Below are positions 4,562 through 20,719 of a stretch of DNA of 64,000 bases, piece by piece. The notes beneath the pieces are model-generated. The model had not been told where the DNA came from. It saw nothing but the letters and a program-made list of their open reading frames with translations, and ran no database searches. Made by a program: the position numbers and the translations under genes. How positions within the stretch are numbered: position 1 is the stretch's first letter; each line of letters starts with the position of its first letter. Source of the DNA: an uncultured Actinomycetes bacterium (GTDB taxonomy: Bacteria; Actinomycetota; Thermoleophilia; UBA2241). The DNA lies in NCBI GenBank assembly GCA_963755025.1, contig CAVWIH010000021.1, positions 1 to 64,000 of the forward strand. Direction: 5' to 3'.

Positions 4562-6032
4562 GTGAAACGGCCCCATCACGCCGGACGGACACGCAGCGGA
4601 GGCCTGTCACTCAACGTCTTCACCCCCGCCGAGATCGACGACATCCACGTGGCCACGCTCGAGGTCCTCGAGCGCACGGGGGTCTTCGTCGAAGACGACG
4701 AGCCGCTCGACATATTGAGCGACGGCGGCTGCCGGGTCGACCGCGACGCGCGGATCGTGCGCATGCCGGCGCACGTCGTGGCCGACGCCCTGGCCGCCTG
4801 CCCGCCCGCCATCAGGTACTGCGGTCGCACGCCCGACCGCGACTTCGTGGTCGAGCCGGGCCGCGTGACCTTCACCAATTTCGACGAGGGCATCAAGTAC
4901 ATCGATCCCTACTCCGGCGAGTACCGCGACCCCACCATCGCCGACGTCGCCGACATCGCCCGCCTGGTCGACGCCATGAGCGACATCGACGGCTACGAGT
5001 CGGCCGTCGGGGCCACCGATGTGCCCACCGAGACCTACGCCCTGCACGGCCTCGAGGCGGCCCTCAACAACACCACCAAACCGGTGGGCTGCGAGGCCAT
5101 CGACAAGTGGGAAGCACGCAAGTGCATCGAGCTGGCGGCCATCGTCGCCGGCGGCGAAGACAAGCTGCGCGAGCGGCCCTTCCTGGGCCTCGGGGTCTGC
5201 CCGGTGAGCCCGCTCAAGCTGCCGCGCGACGCCACCGAGGTGATCATCGAGTGCTCGCGGGCCGGCCTGCCCGACACCATCCTCTCGATGGCCATGTCCG
5301 GCGGCTCGGCGCCGGTCACGCTGGCCGGCACGCTCGTGCAGCACAACGCCGAGGTCCTGTCGGGCATCGTGCTGGCGCAGCTCACCGAGCGCGGCTCGCC
5401 GATCATCTACGGCTCTTCCACCACCGCCATGGACCTGCGTTACGCGTCGGCGTCGGTGGGCTCGCCCGAGCTCGCCCTGATCGGCGCCGCCGTCGCCCAG
5501 CTCGCCCGGCAGTACCGGCTGCCCAGCTACATCGCCGGTGCGTAGGGCGATTCCAAGCTCGGTGACGCCCAGAGCGGTCACGAGAAGACCCTCACCGGAC
5601 TGACGGTGGCGCTGGCAGGGGCCAGCATCATCTACGGCGCGGGGATGATCGAGTCGGGAGTCACCTTCGATTGCGCGCAACTCGTCATGGACAACGAGTT
5701 CGCGCAGATGATCAAGTTCGTGGTCAACGGCATCGACGATCGACGACGAGCGCCTCATGGTCGACGAGATCCACAAAGTGGGCGCCTTCGGCGACTTCCT
5801 GAGCCTCGACAGCACCTACCGGCACATGCGCGAGCAGTCACAGCCCAGGCTGCTCGACCGCCGCGTGCGCGAGGAGTGGCAGGGCGACGGCGCGACCGAC
5901 CTGTACGCGCGCTCCCTCGCCAAGGCGCGCGAGATCCTCGAGCATCACGTGCCCGAGCCGCTCGACGCCGACATCGTCGAAGAAATGCGCGCCTTCGTGC
6001 TCAAGGCTGACCGGGAGAGGGGCGTCGGCTAG
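4562..6032 (+). CDS. mttB: Trimethylamine:corrinoid methyltransferase MttB with in-frame amber (pyrrolysine) codon at 5543-5545; extra +1 frameshift near 5738
   Basis: [26 protein letters not shown]...[10 protein letters not shown]...QLVMDNE continues in frame past TAG; GGAGGT RBS; C-terminus ...[12 protein letters not shown]...HHVPEPLD in shifted frame. Confidence 0.93.
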
Positions 6033-6049
6033 CCGCGCCGTCGCGTGGA

Positions 6050-6186
6050 GCAGCGGCTCGGGGCGCGCAGCGGCTCGCGGCGCGCAGCGGCTCGGGGCGC
6101 GCAGCGGCTCGGGGCGCGCAGCGGCTCGGGGCGCAGCGGCTCGGGGCGCAGCGGCTCGGGAGCGCGCAGCGGCTCGACGCGCAGCG
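6050..6186. repeat. Tandem repeat, ~15-18 bp unit GCAGCGGCTCGGGGCGC, about 8 copies
   Basis: Directly visible between convergent mttB and cupin genes. Confidence 0.9.
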
Positions 6187-6212
6187 CTGAAGGCGCGGCG
6201 ACCCGCGGCCGC

Positions 6213-7148
6213 CTAGAGCCCTTCGCCGTCCCAGTAGTCGAGCTTCTCGATGCGCCCGATCAGGCCGGCGAAGCCGAAGCTGATCTTGTTGGAGCGCGGG
6301 TAGTAGCACATGTCGTCGGCGATGCGGTCGCCGTAGGCCAGATACGTGATGCCGGCGGCGCCGGCGCGGATGGCGTGGGCCACGCCGCTGCCGGGCGGGC
6401 GCACGACGATGCTGCCCACGCGCAGGGGGTGCTCCTCGTCGCCGAGCAGGCAGGCGCCGTCGCCGTCGAGCACGACGAAGGCCTCTTCTTCGGCGCTGTG
6501 CACGTGGGGCGGGCAGCCGATCCTGCCGGCCGCGACCGTGACGAGCTGCGCGCCGCAGGTTTTGGCCCCGGCGGCGCTGCCCAGGTCGCGCCGCAGGCGG
6601 TCGGTGTCGCCCACCGCCTTGGCCTGCACGGCGACGTCGCGGGCGTTGACGATATGGCGGGGCCGCGCGCTGGGCGCGGCCGGCAGCGGCAGCTCACCGG
6701 CAGCGACCTCGCGCGCCCACGGATGCTCGCCGTCGCCGGCGGTCGTCCAGGTGTCTCCTATCCAGGCCACGCCGGCGCGCGGCAGGTAGCCCACCTCGGC
6801 GTGGACGTCGGGGCCCATGATCAGCACGTCGAGACCCTCGACCCCGGCGATCAGGGTGTGCGCGCGCGAGTGCGGCAGGTGGTCGATGAAGTCGCCGTGA
6901 CCGATGGCGAAGGTCTCGCCGCCCTGCCAGCTCAGGCCGGCGCCGCCGAGCACGTAGACGAGCTCCTCTTCGACGGCGTGCCCGTGCACGGGCGTCGCGA
7001 GCCGGCCGGGGTCGATGCGCACGCGCCGGAGCCCCGACTTCGTCGCTCCGGCGCCGACCCCCAGATCGGTCCACTCGGCGGCCAACGGTCCCCAGTCGGC
7101 GCGCCGGCGCGGACAGTCGTCCCAGTGCACGATCCCGTCTGTCGTCAT
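6213..7148 (-). CDS. Two-domain cupin protein
   Basis: Two H.H..EEE...VL.G motifs (PVHGHAVEEE, PPHVHSAEEE); ends LDYWDGE. Confidence 0.85.
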   Translation of the reverse strand: MTTDGIVHWDDCPRRRADWGPLAAEWTDLGVGAGATKSGLRRVRIDPGRLATPVHGHAVEEELVYVLGGAGLSWQGGETFAIGHGDFIDHLPHSRAHTLIAGVEGLDVLIMGPDVHAEVGYLPRAGVAWIGDTWTTAGDGEHPWAREVAAGELPLPAAPSARPRHIVNARDVAVQAKAVGDTDRLRRDLGSAAGAKTCGAQLVTVAAGRIGCPPHVHSAEEEAFVVLDGDGACLLGDEEHPLRVGSIVVRPPGSGVAHAIRAGAAGITYLAYGDRIADDMCYYPRSNKISFGFAGLIGRIEKLDYWDGEGL

Positions 7149-18038: not shown

Positions 18039-18836
18039 GTGATCGAGACCATCACCATCCTCGGAGGCCACGGCAAGACCGGCGAGCCCGAACCGCGTGG
18101 AGCGCCTCGACCTGCAGATGGGCAACGTGGCGAGCATCGTCGGGCCCACCGGCTCGGGCAAGACCACCCTCATCAACGACATCGAGATGTTCGCCGACGC
18201 GCGACACGCCCGTCGGGGCGCGCGCATCCTGATCAACGGCGAGCCCGCGCCCGAGGAGTACCGCAACGACCCCTCGCGCAACCCCATCGCCCTGATCACC
18301 CAGCACACCACGTTCCTGTCCGACCTGCCGGTCGGCGAGTTCCTCGAGATCCACGCCCGGGTGCGCTCCGAGGGCGGCAAGCACGCCGCGAGCATGATCG
18401 CCGACACTATCGACTTCGCCAATCAGCTCACCGGCGAGGCGATCGGCGCTGGACGTGCGCATGACGGAGCTTTCGGGCGGCCAGACCCGCTCGCTGCTGA
18501 TCGCCGACGCGACCATCATCTGCGACACGCCGATCGTGCTGCTCGACGAGGTCGAGAATGCCGGCATCGACCGCTCGCGATGTCTCGAACTGCTGCGCCG
18601 GCAGCGCAAGATCTTCATCTTCGTCACCCACGATCCCCGCATCGCGCTGCTCTCGGACTTTCGCATCGTCATCAGCGAGGGCCGCATCATGAAGATCCTC
18701 GGGCACCAACGAGCGAAGAGCGCGAGCTGGCCACGCGAGGTCACAAAGCTCGACGACGTGCTCTCGAGCCTGCGCGACAAGCTGCGCCTTGGTCTACTCG
18801 CTGACCGGCGACGAGCTCCAGGGGGTCCTCGCATGA
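18039..18836 (+). CDS. Stand-alone ABC-type ATPase (multiple frameshifts)
   Basis: GPTGSGKT, LSGGQTRSLLIAD, VLLDEVENAGID, VTHDP spread across frames. Confidence 0.85.
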
Positions 18837-19534
18837 AGCTCGCCATCGCCGCTGGGCCGGCCACGACCGGCAAGACGTCGGTGCTGCGCCACGCCATCGG
18901 CAAGCTGCTCGACCACGGCGAGCGCGTGGCGTTCCTCAAGATCGACGTGCAGTTCGCCGAAGAGGACGAGCTGCTCGCCAAAGAGTTCGGCATCCCGACC
19001 CGCAAGCTCTACTCGGGCGAGCTCTGCCCCGACCATTGCAGCGTGATGGTGCTGGGCGACGCCATGGAGTGGGCCGACAAGCAGGGCTGCAACATCCTCC
19101 TGGTCGAGACGGCCGGCCTGTGCCTGCGCTGCGCGCCCTACGTTGACGGCGGCCTCGGCATCTGCGTGCTCGAGGCGACCAGCGGCATGAACCTGCCGCT
19201 CAAGGTCGGCCCCATCCTCTCGCTGGCCGACGTCTGCGTCGTGACCAAGGGCGACCTGGTCTCACAAGCCGAGCGCGAGGTCTTTCGGGCGCGCATCCAG
19301 GACGTCTCGCCGCTGGTGCAGATCCGCGAGGCCAACGCGCTCTACGGCATCGGCATCGACCCGCTGGTCAAGAGCATCCTCGAGACCCCCGAGGCCGGCG
19401 ACCACATGCTGCTGCGCGGCAGCCCGCCGGTCGGTACCTGCACCATCTGCGTGGGCAAGCGCGAGGTCGGCTGGCAGTCGCACTTCGGCGTGGTGCGCGC
19501 CCTCGACAACCTCAACTTCTACCGGGGGCAGTAG
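18833..19534 (+). CDS. HypB/UreG-like (G3E) GTPase with Cys motifs
   Basis: GPATTGKT, LCPDH, ETAGLCLRCAP, TKGD, CTICVG; ATGA overlap with the ATPase. Confidence 0.85.
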   Translation: MKLAIAAGPATTGKTSVLRHAIGKLLDHGERVAFLKIDVQFAEEDELLAKEFGIPTRKLYSGELCPDHCSVMVLGDAMEWADKQGCNILLVETAGLCLRCAPYVDGGLGICVLEATSGMNLPLKVGPILSLADVCVVTKGDLVSQAEREVFRARIQDVSPLVQIREANALYGIGIDPLVKSILETPEAGDHMLLRGSPPVGTCTICVGKREVGWQSHFGVVRALDNLNFYRGQ

Positions 19535-19537
19535 GCC

Positions 19538-20719
19538 ATGGAGGACTACACGTATCTCGACCACGCCGCCACCACGCCGCTCGACCCGCGCGTGCGCGAC
19601 GCCATGGCGCCGTTCCTCGACGGCGCCTTCGGCAACCCCTCGAGCCTGCACCGCCGCGGCCGCGAGGCGCACGACGCCCTCGAGGCCGCGCGCGCCGAGG
19701 TGGCCGCGCTGCTCGGCGCGCTTCCAGCCGAGATCGTCTTCACGGGCAGCGGCACCGAGGCCGACAACCTGGCGGTCTTCGGCGCCGTAGCCGCCATGGA
19801 GGGGCCCACGCACATCGTGACGAGCGCGTTCGAGCACCCCGCCGTGCTCGAACCGTGCCGGCAGCTCGAACGCCGGGGCGTCGAAGTGACGTACCTGCCG
19901 GTAGACGGCGACGGCATCGTGCGGCCCGAGTCGCTCGCCGCGGCGCTGCGGCCCACGACGCGCCTCGTGTCGGTCATGGCCGCCAACAACGTCGTGGGCA
20001 CCGTACAGCCGCTCGTCGAGCTCGCCGGCCTGGCTCACGAGGCCGGCGCCCTGTTCCACACAGACGCCGTACAGGCGGCCGGCAAGCTGCCGCTCTGCGT
20101 CGATCGCCTGCCCATCGACCTGCTCTCGCTGTCGGCCCACAAGCTGCACGGTCCCAAGGGCGTCGGCGCCCTGTACGTGCGCGCCGGCCTCGAGCTCGAG
20201 CCGGTCGTGTGGGGCGGCGGTCAGGAGCGGGGGCTGCGCTCGGCGACCGAGAACGTCGCCGGCATCGTGGGCTTCGGCCGGGCCGCGTCGCTCGCCGGTG
20301 ACGAGATGGGCGTGGACTCTGCCCGCCTGGTCGGCTACCGCGACCGCGTCTCCGAGTCCGTCACCGCGCAGATCGACAACGCCTACCTCATAGGCCACCC
20401 GTACCGGCGCCTGCCCGGGTTTCTGTGCTTCGGCTTCTCGGGCCAGGAGGCCGACGCCATCCGCCTGCTGTTCGCGCTCGACGACGCCGGCATCGCCGTG
20501 TCGTCGGGCAGCGCCTGCAGCGCCCATAACGCCGGCGAACCGTCGTACGTGCTCACGGCGATGGGCTTCGACACGATCCGCGCCCGCGGTTCGCTGCGCG
20601 TGACCATGGGCCGCTTCACCACCGAGCACGACATCGACCACCTGCTCGAAGCGCTCCCCAAGGCGGCGGAGTCGCTCACCTCGATCGCGTCGCATGCCGG
20701 GTTCGGCGTGCGCTCGTAA
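19538..20719 (+). CDS. iscS: Cysteine desulfurase (IscS/NifS)
   Basis: YLDHAATT, FGNPSS, SAHKLHGPKG, SSGSACS. Confidence 0.95.
   Translation: MEDYTYLDHAATTPLDPRVRDAMAPFLDGAFGNPSSLHRRGREAHDALEAARAEVAALLGALPAEIVFTGSGTEADNLAVFGAVAAMEGPTHIVTSAFEHPAVLEPCRQLERRGVEVTYLPVDGDGIVRPESLAAALRPTTRLVSVMAANNVVGTVQPLVELAGLAHEAGALFHTDAVQAAGKLPLCVDRLPIDLLSLSAHKLHGPKGVGALYVRAGLELEPVVWGGGQERGLRSATENVAGIVGFGRAASLAGDEMGVDSARLVGYRDRVSESVTAQIDNAYLIGHPYRRLPGFLCFGFSGQEADAIRLLFALDDAGIAVSSGSACSAHNAGEPSYVLTAMGFDTIRARGSLRVTMGRFTTEHDIDHLLEALPKAAESLTSIASHAGFGVRS

Follow-up and report, generated by a model that had tools for sequence, protein, structure and literature searches.

The window analyzed here, a stretch of 64,000 nucleotides (positions 1 to 64,000 of the forward strand of contig CAVWIH010000021.1, hereafter C21), belongs to the assembly of an uncultured Actinomycetes bacterium (GCA_963755025.1, hereafter G000). 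Its positions 4562–6032 on the plus strand very probably encode a pyrrolysine (Pyl)-type trimethylamine:corrinoid methyltransferase, MttB, of a bacterium of the Thermoleophilia (Actinomycetota), as judged from sequence comparison. The gene contains an in-frame TAG at 5543–5545, which we regard as genuine and from which we infer that pyrrolysine is inserted at this position. The specificity of this MttB for trimethylamine (TMA) and its demethylation of this substrate would follow from its family.

Translation shows that the mttB frame opens with a GTG start at 4562 and reaches its first in-frame stop at the TAG of codon 328, preceded by codons 1–327 (4562–5542). Past this codon the same frame resumes coding (5546–5738, ending in ...VVNGID), then becomes rich in Arg and Pro and ends at 6008–6010, while the C-terminal part of the protein (5740–6029, ending in ...RERGVG, with the terminator TAG at 6030–6032) is encoded in the frame of 5736, which is +1 relative to that of 4562. 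The family is that of NCBIfam TIGR02369 and Pfam PF06253. The equivalog profile TIGR02369 (trimeth_pyl) is matched in two pieces, with its positions 2–378 in 4562–5737 (548.4 bits vs a cut-off of 525, first 392 residues) and its positions 379–469 in 5736–6032 (99.2 bits). In a search against solved structures, the read-through protein aligned with MttB of Methanosarcina barkeri (7xcl_A, residues 7–391, E=2.5e-91) and, as a member of a shared fold family, with MtgB (2qne, E=3.8e-52). The two-frame profile match together with the location of the C-terminus indicates that mttB is complete, yet carries a +1 frameshift near 5739, where a single extra base is found (the A in GACG-A-TCGAC, position 5739). 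The initial annotation had described 4562–6032 as an mttB gene with an in-frame UAG; the TAG is real, but the gene does not lie in one frame, as the shift had been overlooked.

The residue derived from the TAG falls on X334 of 7xcl_A within the motif YVAGSXSDAK..D.QAGHEKT, and in the non-Pyl homolog MtgB the same column holds Leu. Translation and alignment thus uphold what had been proposed from the letters alone, namely that the TAG is codon 328 with coding sequence beyond it, that it sits on the pyrrolysine column (about residue 334), and that non-Pyl homologs carry a standard residue there. A check of the TAG in relatives had further been suggested, and it is kept by close and distant homologs alike: when eight orthologs from related genomes are aligned with the window at the DNA level, it is invariant in 9/9 sequences, and the Pyl-type matches in relatives carry one TAG each among the matches listed. 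The site is also spanned by record 19, a contig of the independent public run X3 (5092–5658, two other letters, no gaps), and the sole change listed for X3 lies at 5314. In the alignment, the variable columns 3′ of the TAG are distributed in the phase of 4562 as 27 at position 3, 10 at position 1 and 11 at position 2, and those past the frameshift, counted in the +1 frame, as 19, 8 and 4, respectively. This codon-phased substitution across both parts shows that selection acts on mttB from end to end as a single coding sequence.

The genes for pyrrolysine synthesis and decoding, for which the initial annotation had suggested a search, are all present in the genome: pylT, pylSn, pylSc, pylB, pylC and pylD lie on contig C10, pylC being split over two frames. 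A tRNA-Pyl(cta) was detected by ARAGORN at C10:71096–71168 and folds as a cloverleaf whose anticodon loop bears CUA (−33.5 kcal/mol, z = −2.61). The synthetase is encoded in two parts, with PylSn scoring 125.7 bits against TIGR03912 (cut-off 51.15) and PylSc 277.8 bits against TIGR02367 (cut-off 178.15), the latter on the opposite strand and about 4 kb from pylSn. Desulfitobacterium hafniense and Acetohalobium are bacteria with such split PylSn/PylSc systems. Both pylB (421.7 bits, cut-off 348.2) and pylD (173 bits, cut-off 150.05) are located near the tRNA-Pyl gene, and the cluster also holds a MarR regulator and a corrinoid protein, which matches TIGR02370 with 213.4 bits, slightly below the cut-off of 215.3. 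G000 is a metagenome-assembled genome (MAG) in 39 contigs, with completeness rated at 84% and contamination at about 5%, which leaves room for a binning artifact in which C21 with mttB and C10 with the pyl genes stem from different organisms. We hold this to be extremely improbable, given that three relatives assembled into 6–20 contigs (G010, G011 and G013) hold both the orthologous TAG-containing mttB and PylC or PylSc, and that within the genus (g1) TAG-mttB is found in 11/11 other genomes, PylC in 11/11 and PylSc in 5/5 sampled.

Several observations weigh against an intact mttB that is read through and serves in methylamine metabolism. As assembled, mttB is broken by the frameshift, and PylC is frame-broken in G000 as well, with profile positions 2–84 (65 bits) and 88–370 (244.3 bits) separated at a CCCGGG run (junction near C10:69071–69088). 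The mttB gene of G000 ends in TAG, vs TGA in 5/5 aligned orthologs, and TAG makes up 34% of the stops in the confident genes of G000 (TGA 941, TAG 568, TAA 142). No corrinoid protein gene adjoins the C21 mttB among its annotated neighbors, neither MtmB nor acetyl-CoA synthase (CdhC) was found in G000, for which at 84% completeness no absence is claimed, and the mttB locus occurs in no public run recorded as RNA. Finally, two contigs of public runs (X1 record 6 and X4 record 28) omit two bases at 5701, a frame-breaking change that is seen in 0/8 relatives. The missing bases, 5701–5702, are the CG in TTCGCGCAG; the two contigs come from different public runs, and the change is absent from the window and the eight relatives, so that it could be either a shared sequencing artifact or a real variant.

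Taken at face value, the frameshift would make the C21 mttB a decaying pseudogene with an ancestral TAG, a real shift near 5739 and an odd TAG terminator, with the other four TAG-mttB copies of the genome doing the work. The extra A is, however, private to the G000 assembly (1/9 sequences, gap in 8/8 relatives), and a seven-base tandem duplication of ATCGACG at 5732–5745 was ruled out, because only one base is in excess once relatives are aligned. The same X1 and X4 contigs, which match with zero mismatches, each omit one base at 5736. The contigs from public runs are short and shallow (depth about 3), with uncovered parts not counted as evidence, and with the second gap at 5701 they fail to decide between an intact gene and a pseudogene. 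A codon-score scan of G000 for places at which the coding signal switches frame with the old frame still open returned 378 candidate breaks, with a strong signal to either side in 174 of them, so that breaks occur about every 9–19 kb; these counts carry no measured false-positive rate, and the nine loci checked are hand-picked strong cases on the plus strand, which tempers their weight in favor of an intact gene. Pfam searches with the pieces of these nine loci place breaks inside single genes, some of them essential. In ftsH (C10:13017–15018) the AAA profile is matched at 1–40 and then 42–130, and in the gltX and cysS region (C10:85310–88271) cysS is matched at 4–137, then 137–300, then by DALR. 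Frame jumps likewise break uvrD (UvrD_C split), pnp, typA/bipA, lhr (two breaks), a MoxR ATPase and a sensor kinase, while at one of the nine loci (L058) only one of two pieces matched a family and at another (L063) no family was found. Since broken essential genes are incompatible with life, we read the break near 5739 as an assembly error as well. PylC scores above the cut-off in 11/11 other genomes of the genus, none of which is split as in G000. Hence, both the +1 shift near 5739 and the pylC frameshift are most likely sequencing or assembly indels rather than biology.

These comparisons leave the pseudogene unlikely. It would fit the shift in the assembly, the TAG terminator with no in-frame stop in the more than 100 codons that follow it, the lack of an adjoining corrinoid gene, the different two-base deletion at 5701 in the X1 and X4 contigs and the availability of mttB paralogs in the genome. 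It is hard to reconcile with the 93–94% protein identity to orthologs that is kept over the first 391 residues, with codon-phased substitutions on both sides of the break, with essential genes being broken by this assembly in like manner, with two zero-mismatch contigs that omit one base at 5736, and with a pylC that is broken in G000 alone.

How UAG is used elsewhere in the genome bears on the reading of codon 328 as pyrrolysine. RF1 was found in G000, and its presence together with the use of TAG as a common stop means that UAG decoding in this organism is ambiguous, not reassigned; with TAG at 34% of stops, read-through must be limited or regulated. In the relatives, 74 full-length Pyl-mttB genes terminate with TGA in 65 cases, TAA in 6 and TAG in 3. 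Directly past the mttB terminator of the window and before the convergent cupin gene, 6045–6230 is GC-rich and contains repeated units (GCGCAGCGGCTCG-like). The frequency of TAG as a stop and the presence of RF1 could also be taken to mean that mttB and the pyl genes are real with UAG not being read as Pyl, so that a truncated protein of 327 residues is made; the split pylC in the assembly could equally mean that this gene is truly broken and no Pyl is made. We consider this very unlikely. Conservation 3′ of the TAG keeps the codon phase, so that selection acts on this region as coding DNA; the catalytic half of MttB is encoded there, and the TAG itself is retained in dozens of paralogs across the family alongside PylSc. 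Moreover, avoidance of a TAG terminator in the Pyl-mttB genes of relatives (3/74) is expected if UAG is read through in those mRNAs.

We therefore return to codon 328 as a pyrrolysine codon and to the RNA that follows it. The Rfam model RF02510 PYLIS_3 (pyrrolysine insertion sequence, mttB) matches 5543–5642 on the plus strand, beginning at the TAG, with 53.6 bits (gathering 38, E about 1e-10, model 1–100 of 100). Several of the model's pairs are non-standard in this region, and the match mostly reflects shared coding sequence. A passage of a 2013 study of the mttB region past the UAG states that there is 'no sign of common structure' (PMC3639795). We compared 81 distinct Pyl-mttB fragments, comprising the window, 78 with Thermoleophilia or Actinomycetota titles and two from Desulfobacula, with nucleotide identities of 0.47–0.99. 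At conserved residues, the third-position entropy across these fragments is 0.47 bits in codons +1 to +30 vs 0.93–1.01 upstream. Within this region, RNAalifold and direct counting point to a hairpin of the form GCUGGC-AGGN-GCCAGC at 5611–5626 (plus strand; AGGG in the window), which begins 68 nucleotides past the T of the UAG. All six of its pairs form in 75/81 fragments, and 478 of 486 cells are paired vs 52–228 after sliding of the 3′ arm. A single pair covaries, being C-G in 14 fragments and U-A in 62, which, as the fragments are kin, may reflect few events. The stem is made of rare codons: GCA accounts for 2.0% of the Ala codons of G000, yet is used in 81/81 fragments, and TTG for 2.8% of its Leu codons, yet is used in 62/81. 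The hairpin lies inside the PYLIS_3 match but is absent among the annotated helices of that model. The non-Pyl paralogs lack the ALAGAN motif and hence were unusable as a hairpin control. Judging from these patterns, an RNA element downstream of the UAG may help its decoding.

The C21 gene is one of five TAG-containing mttB copies in G000; of the others, C14 carries two and C16 and C34 one each, and in one C14 copy (391890–393683, minus strand) the C-terminal end is also out of frame. The genome has in addition many non-Pyl mttB paralogs free of internal stops, two Dimeth_Pyl (mtbB) genes with internal TAG (538 and 575.9 bits) and a third mtbB fragment on C34 that matches the profile at 7–352. 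A scan of G000 for tightly linked open reading frames (ORFs) in the same frame, which required a score above 60 for both parts and so passed over the C21 mttB itself, found 29 pairs linked by TAG vs 12 linked by TGA. This excess does not speak for a large Pyl proteome, since 25 of the 29 TAG pairs are adjacent genes such as pyrH-frr and hrcA-dnaJ; the single genes are two mttB and two mtbB. In the window, the genes for a CobW/HypB-type GTPase and a class-V aminotransferase (18443–20719, L043) likewise lie in the same frame with a TAG between them. They appear as two adjacent genes rather than one Pyl protein. Elsewhere in the genome a tRNA-SeC(tca) is encoded at C24:14507–14604, with a same-frame ORF pair linked by TGA nearby (C24 16476–19146, script coordinates), and G000 may use the 21st amino acid as well as the 22nd.

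The neighbors of the C21 mttB are a choline/ethanolamine-kinase-like gene, a pyridoxal phosphate (PLP) decarboxylase gene, a DUF429 gene and a cupin gene. Only the downstream cupin gene is syntenic at the orthologous loci in the 3-kb flanks of relatives; the upstream choline-kinase-like and PLP decarboxylase genes are not, and were rejected as a clue to function. Other mttB copies of the genome are clustered with corrinoid (B12-binding) proteins, permeases and TetR or AsnC regulators, and two RACo_C_ter genes encode RamA-like activases. Going by the families involved, the methyl groups of TMA and dimethylamine (DMA) are likely transferred first to a corrinoid protein and from it to an acceptor of the folate type.

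The MttB relatives reside in MAGs titled Thermoleophilia bacterium, uncultured Actinomycetes bacterium or Actinomycetota bacterium, because of which we take the host to be an actinobacterium, as the initial annotation had supposed. One ortholog (L066), with 93% identity, is located in the public MAG 'Actinomycetota bacterium isolate bog_752', and the next MttB group, with 54–55% identity, is that of Desulfobacula and Desulfobacteraceae. Among 41 related genomes, MttB matches were obtained in 23/24 genomes of the family and in 11/11 other genomes of the genus, each of the latter with at least one match that has a single internal TAG. Across 201 sampled genomes of the class, PylSc was above the cut-off in 32/35 of the family itself (f1), in 5/35 of a second family (f4) and in 0/130 of the other ten families. 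Close relatives occur in public metagenome runs from peat, soil, bog and freshwater, each sharing under half of the sampled words.

The initial annotation had also deemed an actinomycetotal host unusual for pyrrolysine, a view that two papers date. In Guo 2022 (PMC9630628), 81 bacterial genomes with PylRS include two Actinobacteria. Ellenbogen 2023 (PMC10805028) reports expression of Pyl-encoding mttB and mtbB by some Actinobacteriota MAGs from Stordalen Mire, identifies the Pyl genes via their truncation at the amber codon and places the genus Bog-752 with the bacterial methylotrophs of highest activity. Neither pylS nor Thermoleophilia occurs in the main text of the latter paper, whose supplements may list these genes, and in the literature on pyrrolysine in Thermoleophilia or Actinomycetota and on Bog-752 we found no dedicated family-wide account of Pyl beyond these two papers. 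Pyl in Actinomycetota has thus already been reported, and its lineage-wide distribution, the expansion of paralogs and the hairpin may still merit specialist attention.

When compared with already characterized systems, the protein is closest in kind to M. barkeri MttB (PDB 7XCL, 7XCM, 7XCN), which belongs to the same family and shares the UAG at the Pyl334 column and the motif YxAGxOxDxK..D.QxGHEKT. Unlike there, the host is a GC-rich, non-methanogenic bacterium, its synthetase is split into PylSn and PylSc, and the C21 mttB has no adjoining mttC or mttP. The Actinobacteriota MAGs of PMC10805028 are of the same phylum and carry the same kind of gene, the 'bog_752' MAG having the ortholog at 93%; the pyl cassette, the family-wide distribution and the paralog counts, in contrast, come from the present analysis. 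The Pyl systems of Firmicutes and Deltaproteobacteria (PMC9630628) similarly have separate pylSn and pylSc clustered with pylT and pylBCD, and UAG is still a stop elsewhere in their genomes. They differ from the present lineage in that here Pyl is an apparent family-level trait (PylSc in 32/35 sampled), that each genome has five TAG-mttB and at least two TAG-mtbB, and that about 4 kb separate pylSc from pylSn, the two being on opposite strands. The non-Pyl MttB superfamily, for example MtgB (PDB 2QNE, 9YCE), belongs to the same fold family and has numerous paralogs in G000, yet a standard residue at the Pyl column (Leu in 2qne); PMC10805028 describes its known enzymes as acting on quaternary amines, not TMA.

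Taken together, we propose the following scheme. The UAG of codon 328 would be read by tRNA-Pyl(CUA), charged by the split PylSn and PylSc synthetase, with pyrrolysine supplied by PylB, PylC and PylD, encoded on C10 like pylT and the synthetase genes. With RF1 present and TAG a common stop, suppression and termination would compete at the UAG, and the mRNA just past it, with the PYLIS_3 match and the conserved hairpin, may aid decoding. Full-length MttB would use Pyl to activate TMA and methylate a corrinoid protein whose gene lies in another part of the genome, as its family suggests, and the RamA-like activases would keep the corrinoid reduced. A more far-reaching proposal joins two claims: that Pyl decoding is an inherited family-wide trait in abundant soil and peat Thermoleophilia, with expanded Pyl enzymes (five mttB and at least two mtbB per genome) and TAG still at about a third of stops, and that mttB read-through is promoted by the rare-codon 6-bp hairpin with its one covarying pair, shared with Desulfobacula. 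We put this combination forward as a speculation that is more apt to fail than to hold. If true, the hairpin-promoted read-through would be a bacterial Pyl recoding signal, something that is generally doubted in the field for mttB.

For the annotation of such genomes, standard gene callers split Pyl genes at the TAG and indel-rich assemblies add false frameshifts, so that the Pyl trait is hidden in automated annotation; given the breaks inside essential genes, 'pseudogene' calls anywhere in G000 need comparison with relatives. The lineage offers a natural case of ambiguous UAG decoding with TAG as a common stop, suited to studying what restricts read-through to the proper mRNAs. Pyl-dependent methylamine use would reach into GC-rich, non-methanogenic Actinomycetota, and in peat, soil, bog and freshwater these could be competitors of methylotrophic methanogens for TMA and DMA.

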